A DNA stretch of 35,808 bases from an uncultured Candidatus Obscuribacterales bacterium (GCA_964531315.1 CAZHEZ010000061.1:1-35808), one strand, 5' to 3'; counted from the first letter of the stretch, positions 17,711-32,880 are shown. The notes: generated by a model from the letters alone, not told the origin. A program made the numbers and translations.

Positions 17711-18719
17711 CTACGAGACAAATCCCATTGCCGAGCAGGCTCTGGAAAGTGTTTCTTCAGCCACGACTCGGGCTCGCTCGCGCCCATCCCTTATCACCTC
17801 AAGCACGCGCTCGGGCTCTGCCATGAGCTCGTTGTAGCGCGCCTGAATCGGTGCCAGGTAATCGACGATAGTCTCTGCAAGCAGAGGCTTGAATGTGCCA
17901 TAGCCCATGTCGGCGCATTCGGCTGTCACTTCTTCCCGCGTCTTTCCTGAAAGGACTGCGTAAATCGTGAGCAGATTGTGCACCTCGGGTCGAGCCGGGT
18001 TGTCGAATTCAAGACCGCATTGGCTGTCGGTCTTGGCGCTCTTTATCTTCTTGCGAATCACCTCGGGCGGGTCCATCAAATTGATGCGACTGGCGTCTAA
18101 GGTGTCTGACTTGGACATCTTCTTGGTTCCGTCCGTCAAGCTCATTACCTTGGCGGTCTCTGTCACCAGATACGGTGCAGGCAGGGTGAGAATCTCCTTG
18201 CCCTTTGACCCGTAGATGCGGTTGAATCGCGTGGCGATGTCCCGCGTCAATTCCAGGTGCTGTTTCTGGTCGAGACCGACAGGAACAAGGTCGGCATCGT
18301 ACAAAAGGATGTCGGCAGCCATGAGGACCGGATAGTCGAGCAGGCTGAGACTGGCGTCTTCGCCGTCTTTCGACTTCTCGCGAAACTGAATCATGCGCTT
18401 GAGCTGTCCCACCGATGTGATGGAGCCCAGTAGCCGAGCCAGTTGCGAGTGGGCCGCTACGTGTGACTGCACAAACAGAACGGACTTTTGAGGGTCCAAT
18501 CCGCAGGCCAGGTATAACGCGGCGGTGGACAGCACGTGCTGTCCTAATGTCTTGGGGTTGTAGTCCTCGGTAACTGCGTGCAAGTCGGCAATGAAGAGAA
18601 AGACCTCATGCGCGTCTTGCAGTTCTATGGCGCTTTTAACGGCGCCAAAGATAGTTCCCGAGGTGAACGTTGCCGGTCGGGCGGACGCCCGAGAGGATGC
18701 GTGAGTGTGTCGTTTTCAT
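17711..18719 (-). pseudogene. trpS: Tryptophan--tRNA ligase (trpS) with an apparent 1-nt insertion/frameshift in the 5' region
   Basis: ATG at 18719 encodes MKTTHSRILSGVRPTGNVHLGNYL (class I HIGH-type motif) and then hits a stop after WRR. The rest of TrpRS (GAVKSAIELQDAHEVFLFIADLHAVTEDYNP … KMSKSD … ACSAMGFVS) continues in another frame (track ORF 17711-18583). An extra A in the AAA run at 18647-18649 (cttTggcgcc on the coding strand) accounts for the shift. This is either a real pseudogene or a homopolymer sequencing error. Confidence 0.8.
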
Positions 18720-20483: not shown

Positions 20484-21458
20484 TCAGATCATCCCCAGAG
20501 AGCGGATTTGCGCTTCCACGTCCTTGGGAAGGGTGAAGAAGCGGCGCTTGCCCTGGCACGGAATTGGCTTGGACAGGCGGCGCGGGTTGGCGAATTTGAA
20601 TCCGACCGGCCCTTCCCACCAGGGTGAGTTGGACTCGGTGACGCAGTCGACGATGTCGACCAGACCGATGATGGCTCCCATAGGCAGCTTGTCTTCAGCC
20701 GGAATGCGCACGCCGAAGTGCCCGCGGCTCTGGAGAACCTTGCGGATATAGGCCTTGGAGCGCTGGTAGACGCCTTCGGGCTGTTCGTCGGCGGCGTGGA
20801 TGGCGATGGTGCCGCGGACCCGGGCGGGCCACTGGCGGTTTTCCATGTCCTTGCCGACGTTGAAGACGGTCCAGGCCCAGGGCTGACGCAAGGTCAGCCC
20901 CTTGAGACCGGCTTTGGGATCGTGGCGGTTCTCTCTCACCAGGCGCTCCGCTTCGATGATGAATTCCGGCATTTTTGCCGGCAGGTCTTCGAGCGCGCAG
21001 GTGAGAATCGCACCCATGCCGGCCAGTTCACTCAGGCATTTGCCACCGCGGCTGGTGCCGATGCAGACGACGCCGCGAGCGGTAAGTTCGCGCAAGATTT
21101 CGGAGGGGCGATCGCGTCCCTGGAAATCCAGTGAGCGATTGGCCGGTCCGTCTCCGCCGAAGCCGGGCACATTGGCAAACAGGCTGGGCGACTGGTCCTG
21201 GGTCATGTCGTGCGACTGGTCGATGATGGCGATATCGATGTCCGCAAGATCGAATTTCTGGCCGGGAGGCCAATCTTCGATCTTCTTCGGGTCCACCACT
21301 TCCAGATAGACGAAGTCCTTCTCCAGCCCTCTGTAGAGGTCGAAGGCGGTGCCCTGAGTCCAGGTCAGTCCCTTCAACTGCTTTTTGAGAGCGGTGAATG
21401 TGCGCAGGTTCTCCTCACGGTGAACCTTGCGCGCAGACAGTATCAGCAGAACTCTCAT
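20484..21458 (-). CDS. ASCH-domain protein with an N-terminal ~190-aa domain of unknown function
   Basis: C-terminal ASCH-like pattern LRQPWAWTVFNVGKDMENRQWPARVRGTIAIHAA…PMGAIIGLVDIVDCV…PWWEGPVGFKFANPRRLSKPIPCQGKRRFFTLP. SD ggagga 6 nt before the ATG at 21458; the track ORF begins at 21605. Confidence 0.6.
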   Translation of the reverse strand: MRVLLILSARKVHREENLRTFTALKKQLKGLTWTQGTAFDLYRGLEKDFVYLEVVDPKKIEDWPPGQKFDLADIDIAIIDQSHDMTQDQSPSLFANVPGFGGDGPANRSLDFQGRDRPSEILRELTARGVVCIGTSRGGKCLSELAGMGAILTCALEDLPAKMPEFIIEAERLVRENRHDPKAGLKGLTLRQPWAWTVFNVGKDMENRQWPARVRGTIAIHAADEQPEGVYQRSKAYIRKVLQSRGHFGVRIPAEDKLPMGAIIGLVDIVDCVTESNSPWWEGPVGFKFANPRRLSKPIPCQGKRRFFTLPKDVEAQIRSLGMI

Positions 21459-21475
21459 TTGAGTCCTCCGTTTTT

Positions 21476-21916
21476 TCAGTTGGCTGCGGTAGCAGCCGAG
21501 GACGGCCAGTTGGCGGCAGGCCGGGGCGGCGGCGGCGGCGCCGGCCAGATTGGAACGAAGTGGCTGCCCGTGTGCTGCTTGCCGCGCCAGGTGAAGCGAT
21601 ACCACTTATCCTGCACCCACTGCCAGGCAGTCAGTTCGGCGCTCCTTCCATCCAGGCGGAATTTGCAAAAGCCGTTGCTGGCGCCCAGCGGTTCGATGCG
21701 TTCACGCACGGCGCAACTCATCACCTGCATGATTGCCCCGATGCTGGCATCGGCCGGAACGACGAGAATCATGTTCTCGACATGCTTTTTGCCACCCGCC
21801 TCATACTCGAGGTTGGTGTTGAACAGTTTGGTCTGGGGCGATTTCCCGCATGAACACAGGCAGTGCGCAGAACAGGGGGGTTTGAACGTCGTAGTCGTAG
21901 TCATCGGATCCTCCAT
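21476..21916 (-). CDS. Hypothetical Cys-rich protein with a Pro-rich C-terminus
   Basis: MEDPMTTTTTFKPPCSAHCLCSCGK… ending …WPAPPPPPRPAANWPSSAATAAN. Stop lies 17 nt before the ASCH gene start; the track ORF starts at 21946. Confidence 0.45.
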   Translation of the reverse strand: MEDPMTTTTTFKPPCSAHCLCSCGKSPQTKLFNTNLEYEAGGKKHVENMILVVPADASIGAIMQVMSCAVRERIEPLGASNGFCKFRLDGRSAELTAWQWVQDKWYRFTWRGKQHTGSHFVPIWPAPPPPPRPAANWPSSAATAAN

Positions 21917-21969: not shown

Positions 21970-23421
21970 TCAGGCCTTGGGCCGGACTCCCCAGGCGCAG
22001 CGCGCCGAGACGGCGAGCGTAGCGGGGTCTTGCTCGACCGCCACCATGCCGCCCAGGAATTCATAGTCGAAGCTCTCGCCCAGGTATTCCCAGATGAAGG
22101 GTACCTTGCTCACCGGGCTGAGCAGCCGGTCGTGCTTGATGGAAGCGTCGCGACGCTCCAGAAGCGGATTGACCATCAGCTTGGTGTTGTCGCGCCAGTC
22201 CTTGCAGAAGGGGAAGAGCTTGAGCAGCCAGCCGTTGATCTTCTCGCCGCCCGACTCGCTTTTCTGCTTGTAGATGTCTTCGAAGTAGCGCGTGTCGGCA
22301 TTGCCGGCAGCCGCGGCAGCGAGCTTATCGACGATCTCGATCACATGGCGCAGCCAGGGACTGAGGTCGCTATAACGCTCGTTGAGCTTGCGCACCTTGG
22401 CGGCGAGTTTCTGCCAGTCGGCGACCTCTCCCTTGAGGAAGATCTCGGGGATGCCGCAGAGCGTGCCGACGCGATACTCGAAGTAGGACTGCATCGAGTC
22501 CATGAGCACGATCTGCGAGACGGCCTTTTCGACGGGACCCGTCGTGCCGAAGTCGCTGACGATGAGCCCATGGGTTTCGTCACCGATGTAGCCGCGGATG
22601 GCATCCGAGAATTCGCCGAAGCAGCCGGCCCAGTCGTTGCTGGCAGAGCCCTTCACAAACTCGTTGCGGATGATGCGGATGAGTTCCTTGCCTTCATGCG
22701 AGACGAAGTGCTTGCGCCACTTCTCGGGGTCTTGCGCGATGTAGGCGGACAGCCCCTGCGTGACGGTCAGCCAGATGTGATCCGGCGTGAGCAGGAGCGG
22801 GAAGTGCTGGCGGAAAGCCAGATCGGCAGCCGCCACCAACCCATGGATGGGAAAGTGGTTGGCGACGGGAGCGTCAGGATCGCTGACTGCTTCCAGCGTT
22901 TTGGTGGCAGAGCCCTTGCCGACTCTTTGCCCGCTCAAGACGGCCTCGAACATGCTGGAGAGCGATGTGGTGGCATGCGGGGAATGGGCGGCACTGACGC
23001 GGCAGACGCGGAACTTGGTGACCGGAATCGGCTTGTCGACAAGGATTGGGGCGACCGGCTCGGTTGCAGCAACGGCAGCGGCCGCATCGTGCTGCTCGCC
23101 TGAGTTGGCATTGACTGCCACCACTGGCTCGGGCTCGCGTTCTGGTGTCGGCGTTTCCGCCGTGGCTGCGCGCGCCGAAACCTGCAGTTTTGCTTCGCCT
23201 TGCTTGCGGCTCACAGTCCAGTCGCTGCCGGCGAACCGGGCGATGGCTGCGTCGACGGCGGCATCAGCGATGCCGGCGATGCTCACTTCGATGGGCTTGC
23301 CCTCTTCACTCTCCGTGATCGCTGTCACCAGCGCATCGTGGAGCGTCTGAACAGCGGTGGCGCGTTGGGCGCGAAGAGCGGCGACTTCTTCTTTGCTGGG
23401 AATCGGTTTGTCTTGTTGCAC
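21970..23421 (-). CDS. Hypothetical protein (483 aa): Ala/Pro/Glu-rich N-terminal region plus a large conserved-looking domain (tentatively DUF4419-like)
   Basis: GTG start at 23421 with SD aaggaga 6 nt upstream. The N-terminal ~130 aa are low-complexity (…AATAETPTPEREPEPVVAVNA…). The core contains HFPLLLTPDHIWLTVTQGLSAYI. The domain assignment is from memory only. Confidence 0.55.
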   Translation of the reverse strand: MQQDKPIPSKEEVAALRAQRATAVQTLHDALVTAITESEEGKPIEVSIAGIADAAVDAAIARFAGSDWTVSRKQGEAKLQVSARAATAETPTPEREPEPVVAVNANSGEQHDAAAAVAATEPVAPILVDKPIPVTKFRVCRVSAAHSPHATTSLSSMFEAVLSGQRVGKGSATKTLEAVSDPDAPVANHFPIHGLVAAADLAFRQHFPLLLTPDHIWLTVTQGLSAYIAQDPEKWRKHFVSHEGKELIRIIRNEFVKGSASNDWAGCFGEFSDAIRGYIGDETHGLIVSDFGTTGPVEKAVSQIVLMDSMQSYFEYRVGTLCGIPEIFLKGEVADWQKLAAKVRKLNERYSDLSPWLRHVIEIVDKLAAAAAGNADTRYFEDIYKQKSESGGEKINGWLLKLFPFCKDWRDNTKLMVNPLLERRDASIKHDRLLSPVSKVPFIWEYLGESFDYEFLGGMVAVEQDPATLAVSARCAWGVRPKA

Positions 23422-25326: not shown

Positions 25327-26248
25327 GTATGTTTCTCCTTTGGGACCAATGAGAGAAACGCAGACCTTTGCGGTGAGCGCCTCTTCATCAGTCGTGAAAA
25401 ACTGAAAACGCGAATCTGCGAACACACGGTGTTTAGACCGCAGGTTCCAATTGATTCGCAGTGATAAGACGGGACGCGAACTGTTGTGATCAGGCTCCAG
25501 ACAAACCGGACCGGGTCAACTCAACCGAATAAATTCGGTGTCTCTTACTCAAGAGAAAGCAAGAAAGTTAGAGTTGAAACGGGGTCCTTAGTGATTTGGG
25601 AGCAAATGAGATACAAGTCGAACCTACGCGACGCGCCTGTTTATCACCAAAGAATGTCAAGAAGTTTGAAAGACGAGAAATGATACTGAAATGCATACCA
25701 GGCCCATGATTCAAGGGATTTTCATGCGCAGGTGAAACAGATCTTTTCTAGTGATAGCTAAAACCAGGCTTTGAGCTAGCGAAGGAAACCTAGACTGCAA
25801 GCGGATTTAACCGATCTCAGGATTGTGCTTGACATCTGTTTCCAAGGACTGAATTAGCACCAGCAAATATTGTCGATTACTCTGGTTTCAAGCCAGTGCA
25901 AAAGTCCGAAAACCGGCTCGTGATTGCAGTCTTCGCGCGCTTGCGCGAGCTTGTGCTAGGGCGGCAGAAATGCAAACTGACATGGGTTCGCAAACAGTGA
26001 CATTGATTATGAGTCAAAAAACCTCACGTGAGTGTTGTTCGAGCCTCATCAAGACTGTTAAACCAAATTATCCATTTCCTTTCACACACTTCCGTTCTTT
26101 CAAGTCAGGTCCCAGCGCTCACTCAACTTCCATTGTTTGAACACCGCCTAAAAGGTGGTGAGCTGAACGCCGCTTGTTGAAACCAAAGTGTCTTCGGAAA
26201 TGTCATCTCAACTCTCCTGTCTAAATCTGAATTTAAGGAGGCAGACTC

Positions 26249-27622
26249 ATGATCAGCTTGATCTTGATTGGCGCCTTCATCGTCTTCACGATTGGCTTAA
26301 TCGCCAAATACGTGCTCGACAAGAAGGAGCATGAACTGAGAATCACGTGGCAAGAATTCGGGATTGCCGCTGCCGTTCTCATGATTATCGTGATTCCACT
26401 GACCGCCTGGGTCGGACTCAAAGTCGCCTTCAACAACACGGTGACTTACAACGAGTTCTGGAGCGGCTACGAAGTGGAAGCACAATGGTTGAAAATCCAG
26501 ACGTCACGCGACGGAGCAGGCGCCCACAAATGGGACTGCGACCCGTATGACGAGTGGGTTGTAGACCAAGAAGCGTACACCGACGACAAGGGCAATTACC
26601 ACGCCGAGCAGGGTCACTACGAGACTCGCTATCACAGCTGTCCGTACACGACTGAGGAGTGGACTTTCGTCGTCAAGACGACCCTGGGCGATTACTACAT
26701 CGCCGAAAACAACCTGCCCACAGACCCGGAGCAATACCGTTACTACAGTCCGGAAGGCCACTCCCATGGAGCACCTGCCAGCCTGGATCGCGGTGTGCCT
26801 CTGTTTTGGCAGCGCGTCAAAGAGCGCATCGACAGCAATCAGCCCGGTCCGGTCACAGCCAGAAAGCCTTACGACAACTACATTCTGGCTTCCGATCAGA
26901 CCATTCTGAAGAAGTACAGTGCCGACATCGACCGGTACAAGAAAGAGGGCCTTTTCCCGAAGCCCAACGCCACCGTCAGCGATGTCTATTTCGCTGACCG
27001 CGTGTACTTCGTCGGCGTTCAACCGCCGGGTGAATGGCAGAAGTCCGCCAACGCCTTCGATGCAGCACTCGGCATGGAGTTGACCGGAGACCTGCACCTG
27101 ATCATCGTCGACGCCAATAAAGTCAGTGACCCGGAGAATTACTCCGCGGCGCTTTTCGCTTACTGGCAGTCGCCGGAATTCGGCAAAGACGCCATCTCCA
27201 AGAACAGCATCATGGTCATCCTTGCTACCAAAGACGGCAAAACCGTTCAATGGGCACGAGCGGCGACCGGCATGCCTAGGGGCAACGAGCGTCTTCTCAT
27301 CGACATCCGCGATCAGCTGCCGGGCACGGCACTCGATCCTGTCTCCGTTCTCGGCACGCCCAGAGGCGAGCTGTACAACAACGGCGGCAAGACCTTTGTG
27401 CGCGTTGTGCACTCGCAGGGCAAGCTCGAGTCGATTATCTGGGGACCGGATAAATTCGAGCGTGTGCACATGAAGGACTACAGCTACCTGATCCACGAAA
27501 TCGAGCCCACAACCGGGCAGAAGGCGTGGATTATCTTCTTCATCACACTGTTGGGCTGCGTGGCCTGGGGCATTTGCATTGCCTACGGACCGCCTACCTA
27601 CAGGCGTTTCAGCGGTCGTTAA
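26249..27622 (+). CDS. Two-TM protein with a Cys-containing N-terminal domain and a TPM-like C-terminal domain (A1), paired with LemA
   Basis: SD aaggagg upstream. N-terminal TM (ISLILIGAFIVFTIGLIAKYVL) and C-terminal TM (AWIIFFITLLGCVAWGICIAY). Conserved Cys motifs WDCDPY and RYHSCPYTTEEWTF. TPM-like segment GDLHLIIVDANKVSDPENYSAALFAYWQSPEFGKDAISKNSIMVILATKDGKTVQWARAATGMPRGNE. Strong paralog of 28439-29824. Confidence 0.65.
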   Translation: MISLILIGAFIVFTIGLIAKYVLDKKEHELRITWQEFGIAAAVLMIIVIPLTAWVGLKVAFNNTVTYNEFWSGYEVEAQWLKIQTSRDGAGAHKWDCDPYDEWVVDQEAYTDDKGNYHAEQGHYETRYHSCPYTTEEWTFVVKTTLGDYYIAENNLPTDPEQYRYYSPEGHSHGAPASLDRGVPLFWQRVKERIDSNQPGPVTARKPYDNYILASDQTILKKYSADIDRYKKEGLFPKPNATVSDVYFADRVYFVGVQPPGEWQKSANAFDAALGMELTGDLHLIIVDANKVSDPENYSAALFAYWQSPEFGKDAISKNSIMVILATKDGKTVQWARAATGMPRGNERLLIDIRDQLPGTALDPVSVLGTPRGELYNNGGKTFVRVVHSQGKLESIIWGPDKFERVHMKDYSYLIHEIEPTTGQKAWIIFFITLLGCVAWGICIAYGPPTYRRFSGR

Positions 27623-27642
27623 TCGCTGGTAAGGAAAATTCC

Positions 27643-28311
27643 ATGAACTCTGACAAGATTCTCGAACTCCTCAAAAAGCCTGGTGTAATCATCGGCTTGA
27701 TCGTCGCTGCCGTTCTTCTGTTCGGCACTATCTCCGTGATCGGCACTTATACCAGCGTGCGCAACGAAGGTCGCACGCAAGAGTTGTCCATGAACGCGCA
27801 GTGGAAAAACACCCAGACGCGCTACGGGCAATTCCGCATGGGCATGGCCGACAAGCTGGCGATCGCGCGCGAAAAGCGTGACGCCATCAACAAGATCCTG
27901 GTCGATGCCGTCTCCGGACGCTACGACAAGCAGGGTCAACCCGGCACCGTCAATCAGGATGCGGTCTTCTCGGCTATCAAAGAAGCCTATCCCGACTTGA
28001 AGGGGCTCAACATCTTCGACCAGCTAATCGTCGACATCCAGGCGGGGCGTGAAGCCTTCGCCAAGGACCAGGAGACTATGGCTGACATGGTGCGCTCCTA
28101 CAACTCCTGGCGCGAGACGGGCAGCTTCCTGCACCCGACTTTCGTCAAGTGGGCTGGCTTCCCATCGGATGTCCTGGAAGCGCGCGTGGGCGACAAGGTC
28201 TATCACGGGCAAGCGGCTCTCGACAAAATGAACACCGTGATCGTGGGTCAGGGCACAAGCGAGATCTTCGACACCGGCAACGACAAACCTCTGGTCGTTC
28301 CCGGCAAGTAA
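27643..28311 (+). CDS. LemA-family protein (B1)
   Basis: SD aaggaaa upstream of the ATG at 27643. N-terminal TM. LemA-like blocks TYTSVRNEGRTQELSMNAQWKNTQTRYGQ, EAYPDLKGLNIFDQL and YNSWRETGSFLHPTFVKWAGFPSD (cf. the LemA consensus YNsLV..EN…aWsqVenqYQRR…eqYPdLKan…YN..v..yN..i..FP…fGf). Confidence 0.65.
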   Translation: MNSDKILELLKKPGVIIGLIVAAVLLFGTISVIGTYTSVRNEGRTQELSMNAQWKNTQTRYGQFRMGMADKLAIAREKRDAINKILVDAVSGRYDKQGQPGTVNQDAVFSAIKEAYPDLKGLNIFDQLIVDIQAGREAFAKDQETMADMVRSYNSWRETGSFLHPTFVKWAGFPSDVLEARVGDKVYHGQAALDKMNTVIVGQGTSEIFDTGNDKPLVVPGK

Positions 28312-28438
28312 GCCGCGCCCTCTCTTTCTGAGGCGCCACCATAGGCAGTGGCAGAGTGGTCGTCTGCTTTGCAGGTGACCTCTTTTGCCATTGCCGTTCG
28401 AGCGCCCAAATTAATAACAAAAAAGTGAGGTACTGCCT

Positions 28439-29824
28439 ATGATGAACATGATCATTGTGGGTGCTCTGATTGTCTTTGCGATTGGACTTGTTACCAAGTT
28501 CATCCTGGACAAGAAGGAGTCTCCATACAGAATCACTCTTGCCGAATTTGCGATTGCCGGAGCAGTGCTCCTGGCTCTCGTAATTCCTGGCACTACCTGG
28601 CTCGGATACAAGATGGCCTATGAAAACGCCGTCACGTACGAAGAGTTTTGGAACGGTCAGGAAGTAAAGGCCACGTGGGATAAGATTCAGTGCGACAGGG
28701 ACGGAGCTGCTGCCCATACCTTCCGCTGCGATCCCTACAAGGTGCTGGTCACGTACGATTGCTCGTATTACACCGGCTCAGGCAAGAATCGTCACCGTGT
28801 CTCCAAAACGTGCACACGTTGGGAGACGCGCTATCACAGCTGCCCTTACGTCACCGAGGAATGGACCTTCAAGGTCTACACAACGCTCGGCGAGTACACG
28901 ATTGCAGCCAACAATTTCCCGGACCATCCGGAGAATTACCGGTATACCAGTCCGAAAGGATACTCGCAGCCGGCTCCCTCTGATGTTCCGCGCGGCGTTC
29001 CCCAGTTCTGGCAGGACGCCAAAAACCGGCTGGACGCCAATAAGCCGGGGCCTGTAGCTGTGCGCAAGGAGTACGACAATCTCATCCTTGCCTCTCAGCA
29101 CACGATTCTGAAGAAGTACAGTCAGGACATCGAGCGCTACAAGAAAGACAACCTCTTTCCCAAGATTGCCTCGAGCGTTCACGATTTCTACCTGGCTGAC
29201 CGGGTCTACTTCGTTGGTGTGACGCCTGACCCCCGCTGGCAGTGGCACATCAATTACTTCAATGGCGCCCTTGGCTATGAATTGCAGGGCGACCTGCACG
29301 TGGTCATTATCGATGCCGACAAGGTAAACGACCCGGACAATTACGCGGCGGCCCTTTCCGCGTACTGGCAATCGCCCGAGATGGAGAAGAATGCGCTGTC
29401 GAAAAACGCCATTCTCGTCGTCCTGGGCGTCAAGGGCGAAACAGTCAGTTGGGCTCGGGCGACGACCGGCATGCCGCGTGGAAACGAGGCCATGCTGATA
29501 GAAATCCGCGACCAACTCAAAGGCGCTCCCTACGACCCCAGGTCCATCCTCGGGGTGCCGCATGGAGAACTGACTTCAGTCAACGGCGAGACAAAAGTGC
29601 ACATCGTGCATGGACCCGATCAGGGCGCTCTGGAAAGCATCATCTTTGGTGCCGACAAATTCCAGCGTGTGCATATGACGGACTACCAGTACCTGGCGCA
29701 CGAAATCGAGCCGACCGACGGGCAGAAGGGGTGGATCTACTTCTTCATCATCCTGTTCGGCATCATCGCCTGGGGCATCTGCGTCTACGTCGGACCCCAA
29801 ACCTATCACCGTGTTCGCCGGTAA
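28439..29824 (+). CDS. Two-TM Cys-containing TPM-like protein (A2), tandem paralog of A1
   Basis: Colinear with A1 over the full length, roughly 60-65% identical by eye. Same Cys motifs (FRCDPY, RYHSCPYVTEEWTF) and TPM-like segment GDLHVVIIDADKVNDPDNYAAALSAYWQSPEMEKNALSKNAILVVLGVKGETVSWARATTGMPRGNE. N- and C-terminal TM helices. Confidence 0.65.
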   Translation: MMNMIIVGALIVFAIGLVTKFILDKKESPYRITLAEFAIAGAVLLALVIPGTTWLGYKMAYENAVTYEEFWNGQEVKATWDKIQCDRDGAAAHTFRCDPYKVLVTYDCSYYTGSGKNRHRVSKTCTRWETRYHSCPYVTEEWTFKVYTTLGEYTIAANNFPDHPENYRYTSPKGYSQPAPSDVPRGVPQFWQDAKNRLDANKPGPVAVRKEYDNLILASQHTILKKYSQDIERYKKDNLFPKIASSVHDFYLADRVYFVGVTPDPRWQWHINYFNGALGYELQGDLHVVIIDADKVNDPDNYAAALSAYWQSPEMEKNALSKNAILVVLGVKGETVSWARATTGMPRGNEAMLIEIRDQLKGAPYDPRSILGVPHGELTSVNGETKVHIVHGPDQGALESIIFGADKFQRVHMTDYQYLAHEIEPTDGQKGWIYFFIILFGIIAWGICVYVGPQTYHRVRR

Positions 29825-29859
29825 ATCCGGCCACAAATTTCCGTAAGGAGAAAAAAGTC

Positions 29860-30486
29860 ATGAAGAAATTCATCGTAATCGGCGTCATCGCCGCGCTCGT
29901 GCTGGGAATCTTCTCGGTCATCAGCACGTACACATCGATCCGCAACGAGGGCACCCGCACGGAGCTCTCCATCACTGCCAAGTACAAGGCGATGCAGGCC
30001 AGCTACGGCCAGGACCGCCTCGCTTTCACCGACCAGCTGGGCATTTCCCGCGACAAGCGTGACGCCATGGACAAGATCCTGACGGACGCCGTCAGCGGTC
30101 GCTACAACAAGGCGGGCTCACCCCAGGTCGACAACGGCAAGCTCTTCTCGGCCATCACCGAGGCTTATCCCGACCTCTCCGGTCTGAACATCTATGACAA
30201 GATCATGGACTTCGTCACCAAGATGCGCAGCAAGTTTGCGCAGGACCAGGCCCAGGTCGCCGAGATGATCAAGGACTACAACACCTGGCGCGAGACGGGC
30301 AGCTTCCTGCACCCGACTCTGGTCAAGTGGGCTGGCTTCCCCTCGGATGCACTCGAGGTGCAGGCCAACGGCAACGTCTACCGCGGTCAGGCTGCGCTCG
30401 ACAAGATGTCGCGCCCGATCGTCGGCTCCGACACCGGTCAGATCTTCGACACGGGTGTGGACCAGCCGGCCATCCCTGGCAAGTAA
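29860..30486 (+). CDS. LemA-family protein (B2), paralog of B1
   Basis: SD aaggag upstream of the ATG at 29860. Blocks TYTSIRNEGTRTELSITAKYKAMQASYGQ, EAYPDLSGLNIYDKI and YNTWRETGSFLHPTLVKWAGFPSD. Confidence 0.65.
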   Translation: MKKFIVIGVIAALVLGIFSVISTYTSIRNEGTRTELSITAKYKAMQASYGQDRLAFTDQLGISRDKRDAMDKILTDAVSGRYNKAGSPQVDNGKLFSAITEAYPDLSGLNIYDKIMDFVTKMRSKFAQDQAQVAEMIKDYNTWRETGSFLHPTLVKWAGFPSDALEVQANGNVYRGQAALDKMSRPIVGSDTGQIFDTGVDQPAIPGK

Positions 30487-30507
30487 CTAACCCAATCAGC
30501 TGTGGTT

Positions 30508-30575
30508 CTGCAAGGAGGGGCAACCCTCCTTGCAGACTGTGGCGGCAAAAGCGCCCTGCGTTTTTGCTCTTTTCC
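30508..30575 (+). terminator. Intrinsic terminator after the duplicated A/B module
   Basis: Perfect 12-bp stem ctgcaaggaggg-gcaa-ccctccttgcag (GNRA loop), then ggcg-gcaaaa-gcgcc and cctgcgTTTTTgctcTTTTcc. Confidence 0.6.
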
Positions 30576-31572: not shown

Positions 31573-32076
31573 AATTCCTCATTGGTGTTTTGACAATACC
31601 GGCCTTTGTTTGAAATTGATGATTTCGGCTCTGTTTAGCTCAGACCGGCTGCTTCCAACCAAAGCCTGGTTCACGTGAGCGCGCATGAACTTTCAACACA
31701 GCTTGAGCAAATCAAAAAACCGCCAACCACTCAAAATGCGCCTTTTATATATCCACTTGACAAGTTCGCGCAGCTTGGCCAAGCTGGTCTTTCCAGATTT
31801 TAGGTAGATCTGTATCTTCCTCCTCGACCTTTCGCTAGGTTGAGATATCTACATTCTTTCTTTTGATCATCAGGTATTAACTCCAGGCTCATAACTCACA
31901 TTCCAGTTCCGCAGGAACACCGGCCACACGCGCCGAGAGAATGAGTACGGGTCTGGAGCTAATGCTTGGTCATCGGCAGAAAGAATTGGCAATTGAAACT
32001 GATCCAGAGGCGGCCGATTGGCTTGCTGTTTGGTGTTTTGCAGTTTCCAGAAAAGCAGCCTGACTGCTGCATAACA

Positions 32077-32880
32077 ATGAAATGGAGAACTAATGTGAAC
32101 ACTCAACTGAAATCGATCGAAGCCGCCCTGTCGCGGCTTGATCCCGAACGTCGAGAGCGGATTCTGCAACAGGCGGCCGAATGGGCCACTGCTGCCGCTG
32201 CGCTCGAAGACGTCAAACGCCGTGGGCTGACTTTGGTCGGCTTCATGGGTTCGGCTCGCGAACACGAGCACACCGAAGAGATCTGCCACCTGGTCGAAGA
32301 CATCGCGTCGCGGCTGGGACCCAAGTTTGCTGTCATCACTGGTGGTGGAGACGCCGTCATGGCTTTCGCCAATCGTGGTGCCAAGCGCGGCGGTTCTTTC
32401 TCAATCGGTCTCAACCTCCTGGCGCCCAACACGCCGGAGCAGCGCCCCAACGATTATCTCGACCTGGCTCTGCCGCACAGCGGTTTCGGGCACCGGTTGG
32501 ATAATTTCCTCTCCTACACCGACATCATGGTGTTGGGCATCGGCGGCTTCGGCACGGACCTGGAAGAAGTCTTCTACCGTCAGTGCATTCAAGTCGGCAC
32601 CCACAGCGAGATCCCGCTCGTCTACCTGAAGCCCAGCTTCTGGCGCGGCAAGCTCGATCTGGTGCGCTTGCAGTTGGAGCGCCGCCTGTTCAGCCCGGAA
32701 GACCTGAGGATGGTGCATATCGTCCCTGAAGATTCCGACCTGACCGGCAGCGGCTCACTCTCGCTGCACGACCGCCAGCTGTTCCAAATCGACCACGATG
32801 GAAACACCGAGGCCGACCGGGCCAGCAACCTGATCTTCCGTCTGGCTCAACAGCGCCAGAGGTCGGTGAAATATGCATAA
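32077..32880 (+). CDS. LOG-family (TIGR00730-type, Rossmann-fold nucleotide-binding) protein
   Basis: Motifs AVITGGGDAVMAFANRGAKRGGSFSIGLN and IMVLGIGGFGTDLEEVF match the GGGxGxMxA … PGGxGTxxE signature of the LOG/lysine-decarboxylase-like family. The start is uncertain (ATG at 32077, or GTG at 32095 with a GGAGA SD). Confidence 0.7.
   Translation: MKWRTNVNTQLKSIEAALSRLDPERRERILQQAAEWATAAAALEDVKRRGLTLVGFMGSAREHEHTEEICHLVEDIASRLGPKFAVITGGGDAVMAFANRGAKRGGSFSIGLNLLAPNTPEQRPNDYLDLALPHSGFGHRLDNFLSYTDIMVLGIGGFGTDLEEVFYRQCIQVGTHSEIPLVYLKPSFWRGKLDLVRLQLERRLFSPEDLRMVHIVPEDSDLTGSGSLSLHDRQLFQIDHDGNTEADRASNLIFRLAQQRQRSVKYA

Follow-up and report, generated by a model that had tools for sequence, protein, structure and literature searches.

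Two tandem copies of a putative, divergent LemA/TPM-type membrane gene pair in an uncultured Candidatus Obscuribacterales bacterium

A contig of 35,808 nucleotides from an uncultured Candidatus Obscuribacterales bacterium (GCA_964531315.1, CAZHEZ010000061.1:1–35808; the whole stretch is referred to as the window) carries four consecutive genes, A1, B1, A2 and B2, at positions 26,249 to 30,486, which raise the question of where membrane proteins that pass no curated family model belong, and what a pair of them kept in two copies would do. A first-pass annotation, made from the sequence alone, had read the four genes as a tandemly duplicated two-gene module, in which a TPM-like protein (A) is followed by a LemA-family protein (B). 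The reading favoured here, held with somewhat better than even confidence, is that they represent two tandem copies of a membrane module from a divergent branch of the LemA/TPM proteins, which would form an outward-facing complex and act as a non-enzymatic scaffold.

That the module is duplicated is evident from both genes. The two A proteins align end to end (60.8% identity, 459 columns, E 0, blastp), as do the two B proteins over their full length (57.3% identity, 211 columns, E 4e-87, blastp), and the DNA of the two modules is ~66% identical across 1.7 kb, which bears out the tandem, collinear paralog pairs of the first-pass annotation. Each gene is preceded by a Shine-Dalgarno (SD)-like motif of its own (AAGGAGG, TAAGGA, GTGAGGT and TAAGGAG), also as annotated, and the starts of the B genes were taken as the first ATG with such a motif ahead of it.

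By comparison of sequence profiles, the B proteins are remote members of the LemA superfamily. Against the Pfam LemA model (PF04011; cutoff, 26.2 bits) B1 scored 17.2 bits (E 0.0046) and B2 14.3 bits (E 0.038), neither reaching the cutoff, and none of the 65 members of the B family passed it (sub-threshold matches in 7 of 65). A profile built from 71 B sequences, however, had the LemA structure 2ETD as its top match in the PDB (E 8.8e-4), and a broader 65-sequence profile, with members from the Candidate Phyla Radiation (CPR) and from phages included, had the same top match at E 9.3e-6, with profile positions 34–165 aligned to residues 12–152 of the 171 in 2ETD, nearly the whole domain. An hhalign comparison of B with LemA gave a probability of 91.4% (E 8.9e-7, 126 columns) and a common E-x-YP-x-L motif. 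It is because of the family profiles and the hhalign comparison that B is called a LemA relative despite its sub-threshold Pfam scores, so that the annotated family stands as a remote homology and fails as a Pfam assignment. The first-pass annotation had staked its case on significant profile hits to TPM and LemA; with Pfam there were none, though this yardstick was judged too strict. In both proteins a transmembrane (TM) helix (residues 15–33 in B1, 4–22 in B2) precedes the LemA-like helical domain, past which B1 extends for another ~50 aa at its C-terminus.

For the A proteins, sequence comparison was silent and a predicted structure was informative. Neither A1 nor A2 matched the Pfam TPM model (PF04536) even at E 1, nor any NCBIfam model; none of the A family exceeded the Pfam TPM threshold (one of 56 members, E 0.021), and A family profiles had no match in the PDB by sequence. 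An AlphaFold2 model of A (pLDDT 91.6, pTM 0.80; 93-sequence alignment) contains, in chain order, two TM helices, five long antiparallel strands with helices, an alpha/beta domain, and a C-terminal TM helix. The model superposes on the alpha-beta-alpha sandwich of TPM domains, with its four-stranded central sheet and flanking amphipathic helices, and in a structure search the top eight of 48,164 chains were eight different TPM structures (match value in parentheses): 3pw9, AtTLP18.3 (9.7); 5anp, BA41 (9.5); 8c7i, Psb32 (8.8); 7tbr, Rhodothermus TPM (8.5); 2kw7, PG_0361 (8.2); 2kpt, cg2496 (7.7); 9h70, LMTP1 (7.3); and 6adq_J, DUF5130/AscF (7.2). In sequence, A is only 7–14% identical to the solved TPM domains. 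TPM sequences are highly divergent while their fold is conserved (PMC13456599; bioRxiv 10.1101/2024.10.28.620569), which would account for the silence of the Pfam model on A. The annotated TPM-like character of A is thus upheld by the predicted fold, but not by any PF04536 match. Overall, remote homology together with the predicted fold demonstrates the relation of the pair to the TPM-like and LemA-like families.

The layout of A1 consists of TM1 (residues 1–19), a predicted cytoplasmic loop, TM2 (39–57), a beta-rich domain (~66–245), the predicted TPM fold (~250–418), TM3 (426–444; 433–451 in A2), and a basic tail, such that the single N-terminal TM helix of the first-pass annotation is replaced by two, with the C-terminal helix retained. 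A C-terminal TM tether after the TPM domain is common in bacterial and plant TPM members and is present in both A1 and A2. The additional domain that had been noticed between the membrane anchor and the TPM-like region is real and confidently modelled, and this beta-rich domain (~180 aa) had no convincing counterpart among solved structures. Across cellular and phage A proteins only G73, N210 and N319 are invariant, and the TPM part has no acidic or histidine residue conserved in both groups (D281 is replaced by N and E347 is variable).

Both proteins also match phage families. A1 matches phrog_2087 (E 8e-25, profile positions 4–347 of 360; A2, E 4e-25) and B1 matches phrog_1383 (E 5e-25, positions 6–183 of 187; B2, E 1.5e-23). 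At the level of structure, A1 matches gp669 of phage Atu_ph07 over its full length (E 2e-22, TM-score 0.74 on the target), and a phage protein named ‘TPM domain-containing’ in UniProt matches the whole A model (E 4.5e-13).

The A family is a small one: a search of 1.84 billion representatives with its profile (E ≤ 1e-3) retrieved 574 clusters, defined at 50% identity. The 77 genome loci examined (one genome per species) belong to Obscuribacterales/Melainabacteria, many CPR phyla (Parcubacteria groups, Saccharibacteria, WWE3, Woesebacteria, and others), one cultured Aeromicrobium, and a few other metagenome-assembled genomes (MAGs), and in 75 of them B follows A directly on the same strand. Across 89 loci, including 7 from phages and 5 from look-ups of the encoding contig, the arrangements were AB (n = 52), ABB (n = 18), BAB (n = 5) and ABAB (n = 5), with ABBB and ABBBB in addition; all CPR loci have a single AB pair, and ABAB is found in the closest relatives of the window. 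An all-against-all clustering of the neighbours at 84 loci returned only A, B, and antisense or alternative-frame shadows, with no third conserved gene beside the pair and no conserved stress-response partner. The sub-functionalised envelope stress or repair machinery suggested in the first-pass annotation is speculative. In one protein (P0118, 680 aa; L093 774–2816) the pair is naturally fused, with A at residues 1–450 and B at 478–672; downstream of it lie a gene for 224 aa and then an RND efflux pair. A second candidate fusion (P0264, 607 aa) was rejected, being an A protein with a low-complexity insertion.

Of nine lineages of large phages, eight have an A-like gene next to a B-like one, six by profile and two (Kaldavass and FLC9) from gene size and position, and the paired phages infect Sinorhizobium, Agrobacterium, Aeromonas, Xanthomonas, Salmonella, Serratia, Erwinia and Burkholderia. 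Vibrio phage pVp-1 gave a profile match for the B-like protein only; the 320-aa gp107 upstream of it has the expected size and position and was unmatched by the A profile even at E 10. A literature search on LemA with TPM, and on LemA in phages, found nothing about this A-B pair. Several phage B homologs (NC_019529, NC_049509, NC_042013 and NC_048792) are labelled ‘virion structural protein’ in RefSeq and PHROGs, one of them ‘putative major capsid protein’; such a label looks doubtful on a LemA-like membrane protein with a single TM helix and may be a propagated annotation.

Cysteines of the beta-rich domain come and go in pairs. Among 93 A relatives in which cysteine columns were counted, C97 and C131 (A1 numbering; motifs WDCDPY and YHSCPY) are both present in 64 and never occur singly; sequences without them have G/E and I at the two positions, again as a pair. 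The first-pass annotation had taken the cysteines of WDCDPY and RYHSCPY to be invariant, a description that fits A1 and A2 but not the family. Of a second pair, present in A2 and not in A1, one cysteine is found in 30 sequences and the other in 29, with both together in 29, and a third pair of positions co-occurs in all 52 sequences that have the rarer cysteine. This strict pairwise gain and loss suggests that the pairs form disulfides. The beta domain of A1 has the C97/C131 pair alone, while A2 has five ectodomain cysteines, the second pair included; as CPR and phage members have up to eight cysteines in the region, A1 is a cysteine-poor derivative.

The distribution of lysine and arginine residues follows the positive-inside rule in A, with family means of 0.09 at the N-terminus, 3.07 in the TM1–TM2 loop and 2.69 in the C-terminal tail, and of 1.19 and 1.57 in the flanks of the large domain (15 aa after TM2 and 15 aa before TM3, respectively). 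In B, the N-terminal flank of the helix is richer in these residues than the C-terminal flank in 37 members, with the reverse in 14. In the fusion P0118, A is followed by a basic linker, a TM helix and then B, an order consistent only with the A and B domains being on the same, outer side. Charge pattern, pairwise cysteine loss and the arrangement of P0118 together suggest that the large domain of A and the LemA-like domain of B both face outward from the cytoplasmic membrane. In one Obscuribacterales genome (L006/L027, 10238–11345), genes for a DsbA-like thioredoxin and a VKOR protein, a combination that constitutes a disulfide-forming system, are located directly downstream of a B-A-B locus; as support for an outward topology these neighbours are anecdotal.

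Genes for canonical LemA (PF04011) and TPM (PF04536) proteins form a known conserved pair, of which the Bizionia argentinensis BA41/BA42 neighbourhood and the YgcG-like proteins are presumably examples. The A-B pair departs from it in several respects: both proteins score too low for the Pfam models; at its N-terminus A has two additional TM helices, arranged as a hairpin, and then the paired-cysteine beta domain ahead of its predicted TPM fold; the TPM-like gene comes first and the LemA-like gene second; B has an extra C-terminal segment of ~50 aa; and the phyletic range (Obscuribacterales, CPR and large phages) is unusual. Since both curated Pfam thresholds were failed, it seems best to treat A-B as a divergent branch of the LemA/TPM proteins that is new and has no name yet, rather than as a plain member. 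The thylakoid lumen proteins TLP18.3, Psb32 and LMTP1, which take part in photosystem II (PSII) repair and assembly, are 9–14% identical to A and have neither the beta domain nor the N-terminal TM hairpin; Obscuribacterales are non-photosynthetic, so PSII repair cannot be the role of A-B. AscF/AscG (DUF5130), the TPM-fold subunit of the mycobacterial CIII-CIV supercomplex, likewise has no beta domain and no LemA partner, and AscF is cytoplasmic, its sheet completed by a strand from a second small protein. MamQ, a magnetosome protein of the LemA family, is like B2 a single-pass LemA-type membrane protein, but B2 is not its ortholog (22.9 bits, E 5e-5, against an NCBIfam cutoff of 250) and has no magnetosome gene context. 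Large phages with phrog_2087 (unknown function) and phrog_1383 (‘virion structural protein’) have the same A-then-B adjacency (e.g., Atu_ph07 gp669/gp668, Moabite gp060/gp061, P46FS4 gp181/gp180 and pVp-1 gp107/gp108). Their A proteins have the TM layout and cysteine-rich beta region of the window's A proteins, in a shorter form (320–395 aa) whose cysteines, up to eight in number, make a compacted knot, and with 19–25% identity, and their pairs are often beside NAD+ salvage genes, unlike the cellular pairs.

As to what the pair would do, A is predicted to cross the membrane three times and to expose, between TM2 and TM3, an elongated beta-sheet domain, whose tip would hold one to four cysteine pairs, followed by the alpha/beta domain of TPM fold. 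The single-pass B, with its LemA-like helical domain after the TM helix, would assemble with A through TM helices and ectodomains into one complex, which would most likely serve, anchored in the membrane, as a scaffold or in a chaperone-like capacity in some envelope or membrane-protein process. Both the complex and its scaffold role are inferred, and a non-enzymatic, scaffold or chaperone-like activity is favoured with moderate-to-low confidence for two reasons: the few invariant residues include no acidic or histidine residue in the TPM part, and characterised TPM proteins are mostly accessory or assembly factors of membrane complexes. Such a role would match those proposed for TPM proteins in PSII repair, in a respiratory supercomplex, and as a receptor auxiliary subunit. 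Published accounts cast TPM domains either as assembly factors of a chaperone-like kind or as weak phosphatases whose metal sites are not conserved (PMC11237479, PMC13456599, bioRxiv 10.1101/2024.10.28.620569); metal sites vary even among solved TPM structures (PMC13456599), and one member binds neither metal nor nucleotide (PMC11237479, PMC13456599).

Several points weigh against this reading. Both A and B fall below the curated Pfam and NCBIfam thresholds, and it is a predicted structure that assigns a TPM fold to A. For B, the charge bias across the membrane is of moderate strength, and the A-B fusion was seen once, on one metagenomic contig. Several TPM proteins show phosphatase or ATPase/ADPase activity in vitro (PMC13456599), and the association of the phage pairs with NAD+ salvage genes would fit a metabolic role better than a scaffold.

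The rival that takes up these last two points, itself rather unlikely, is that A-B is a membrane-anchored ecto-phosphohydrolase, whose TPM domain would dephosphorylate nucleotides outside the cell or in the periplasm (nicotinamide mononucleotide [NMN], NAD-derived nucleotides, ATP/ADP) so that nucleosides such as nicotinamide riboside (NR) could be imported, serving NAD+ reconstitution in phages and nucleotide or cofactor scavenging in CPR and Obscuribacterales. CPR bacteria depend on scavenging, which counts in its favour, as do the in vitro activities of some TPM proteins. It also draws on a striking pattern seen in phages only: in five of the nine lineages, genes for NAD+ salvage or ADP-ribose metabolism surround or adjoin the pair, a raw count from genomes where auxiliary genes cluster anyway. 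In Sinorhizobium phage Phosso (L001 1196–5727), genes for PnuC and a NadR-like NMNAT are located 1–3 kb upstream of A-B; in Xanthomonas phage BUDD (L003 1894–7647) and phage X1 (L092), A-B is preceded by NAD synthase and followed by NMNAT, one further gene and NAMPT; Aeromonas phage Ahp1 (L002) has an NMNAT 2.8 kb downstream; and Atu_ph07 (L011 2299–4531) and Moabite (L012 2363–4537) have a macro-domain ADP-ribose 1''-phosphate phosphatase directly upstream. By pathway, PnuC with a NadR-like protein is of NARP3 type and NAMPT with NMNAT of NARP2 type. The NARP3 pathway, experimentally defined, consists of PnuC and NadR and needs external NR (PMC13464706), and the paper that defines it makes no mention of TPM or LemA proteins. 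The other four phage lineages, however, have no NAD+ neighbours, the TPM part of A lacks a family-wide acidic or histidine residue, and no NAD-related gene is conserved near the 77 cellular loci or found near the window copy, the search at cellular loci having been negative save for one NAD synthase ~4 kb from A in L031.

A wider version of the same idea, decidedly unlikely, would make A-B an outward-facing machine common to CPR, Obscuribacterales and large phages that processes pyridine or adenine nucleotides outside the cell or in the periplasm (e.g., NMN or NAD to nicotinamide riboside), with the TPM ectodomain carried on a disulfide-stapled beta stalk beside its LemA-like partner. If true, the phage pair would be the missing periplasmic first step of NARP2/NARP3 NAD+ reconstitution against NAD-depleting immunity, and A-B in ultra-small symbionts would be a core scavenging device. 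Were the phage neighbourhood link functional at all, it would add a membrane or periplasmic component to the conflict between phages and bacteria over NAD+ reconstitution.

It is very unlikely that A-B is a phage-derived cassette (a moron, superinfection exclusion, or defence/counter-defence element) that the Obscuribacterales genome acquired and that acts in phage-host conflict instead of envelope housekeeping, though the matches of both proteins to PHROG families (E ~1e-25), the homologous pairs in many large lytic phages, the amplification and diversification of the pair in Obscuribacterales (ABB, ABBB, ABBBB and ABAB), and the abundance of open reading frames (ORFs) without family match around it in the window would all fit. 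PADLOC was negative for A1, B1, A2, B2 and two upstream ORFs, apart from a spurious Cas2c (E 0.016); a PHROG scan found no phage structural or integration genes among ten large ORFs of the window, which also contains no tRNA; homologs occur on chromosome-scale contigs of up to 6.7 Mb, with flanking genes syntenic in relatives; a single A-B copy is widespread over many CPR phyla with tiny genomes; and cellular and phage proteins are 19–25% identical, so that there was no recent transfer. The window is chromosomal and not viral: proteins the same as its own, or almost so, are encoded in MAGs of Candidatus Obscuribacterales/Melainabacteria, and 16 kb of it had no match among phage genomes (megablast). 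A prophage reading of the window was rejected on this negative result together with the lack of tRNA and structural genes.

The least credible alternative, that the LemA and TPM similarities are convergent or spurious and the four ORFs an unrelated lineage-specific membrane family, appeals to the failed curated thresholds and the 7–14% identity to solved TPM domains and is highly improbable, as two independent profile methods rank 2ETD top over the full domain, TPM structures fill the first eight places of the structure search, and the recurrence of the LemA and TPM pairing would be an unlikely coincidence.

The wider interest of the A-B pair lies with the LemA and TPM proteins as such, which are very widespread and often paired, have no agreed function, and find in A-B a clean, strictly paired and occasionally fused version. 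With a confident model, a domain unmatched in solved structures, and retention in both tiny CPR genomes and unrelated large phages, the pair is a good entry point to LemA/TPM complexes, and ~570 clusters (50% identity) now unannotated or doubtfully called ‘virion structural protein’ could be named.

Neighbour-joining trees, which are indicative only, were used to follow the duplication. The first-pass annotation had invoked one old duplication, and the history of A and B is more complex than that. The split between B1 and B2 is older than the immediate clade of the window: genomes with a single A carry B1- and B2-type copies as A-B1-B2 or B1-A-B2, B2 orthologs are present in genomes without A2, and L016, whose A is 85% identical to A1, has A1-B1-B2 and no A2. 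A2 forms a separate long-branch clade found in ABAB genomes and one contig-truncated locus only. A simple reading of these trees would be an ancestral ABAB arrangement followed by loss of either A copy. In other Obscuribacterales, B was duplicated independently several times (L024, L028/L035, L034, L043, L044 and L037), where the B copies of one genome are mutually closest, giving ABB, ABBB and ABBBB with A single. As the copy number of B is labile while A is mostly single, this points to a complex of variable A:B composition, with variable B subunits, as a better fit than two autonomous machines.

The coordinates of the genes and of the non-coding features around them are collected in Table 1.

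Table 1. Genes and non-coding features of the A-B locus (positions counted from the first letter of the window)
Feature	Position	Strand	Length	Description
A1	26249–27622	+	457 aa	ORF call
B1	27643–28311	+	222 aa	TM helix, divergent LemA-like domain and C-terminal extension
A2	28439–29824	+	461 aa	A1 paralog, same architecture
B2	29860–30486	+	208 aa	B1 paralog; TM helix and LemA-like domain
Leader	25426–26248	+	823 bp	Low-GC intergenic region 5' of A1
Conserved island	25605–25671	+	68 nt	~80% identity in close relatives
Small hairpin	26142–26160	+		CCACCG-N4-GGTGG
Terminator-like hairpin	28358–28380	+		In the B1–A2 spacer; 10 pairs, then TCTTTTG; called by terminator scan
GCAA-capped hairpin	30507–30536	+		13 pairs, 21 nt past the B2 stop codon

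The leader ahead of A1 has a GC content of 0.46 compared to 0.56–0.58 in the genes and contains short ORFs only, and is the counterpart of the ~900-bp, lower-GC and ORF-free leader that had been described; one of these ORFs, compared with relatives, was not conserved. The island, in which a variable core lies between two near-invariant blocks, is conserved in L013, L019 and L021, in a leader that is otherwise largely unconserved. A small ORF at the island was rejected, as its ATG is unconserved in relatives; a small RNA or a site of regulation may lie there instead. The small hairpin, ~90 nt before the A1 start, has a loop of 4–5 nt, and among four aligned relatives the stem is kept with a variable loop in L019, L022 and L013 and not in L016; it may be an element of the 5' untranslated region or the end of an upstream transcript. 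The A1 SD motif AAGGAGGCA is conserved among the aligned relatives. An Rfam scan of leader and module gave nothing credible, leaving a riboswitch or leader-RNA reading unsupported.

The B1–A2 spacer is strongly structured (-52.8 kcal/mol, z -4.74), and its hairpin may act as a partial terminator or processing site between the modules. The 74-nt stretch around the hairpin after B2 (30487–30560) is similarly structured (-37.1 kcal/mol, z -4.65); this hairpin is followed not directly by a T-run but later by a second small hairpin and T-runs, was not called by the terminator scan, and is conserved at ~78% in L013, L020 and L021. It is a candidate end of the transcription unit. The GCAA hairpin annotated in the first pass is thus real, but it is not the sole terminator-like structure of the locus, as had been supposed. 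Promoters and terminators were no more numerous than in shuffled sequence, for which reason none of the promoters is put forward. Antisense ORFs within A1 (330 aa) and A2 (261 aa) were rejected as genes, since their conservation merely follows that of the sense genes.

Elsewhere in the window, an ORF of 373 aa (20484–21605, minus strand) matches phrog_3193 (unknown function; E 4e-38), with no Pfam match, and adjoins a DUF4419 protein (21970–23421) and a 476-aa ORF without family match. A further ORF (17711–18583, minus strand; 290 aa) resembles class I Trp/Tyr tRNA synthetases and matches the Pfam profile from position 46 on; either its start was mis-called or the protein is N-terminally truncated. 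A LOG/SLOG-type gene (Lysine_decarbox/LDcluster4) lies a few kb from A-B both in the window (31966–32880, plus strand) and in L007 (4605–5321), whose A is 70% identical, which is probably plain synteny.

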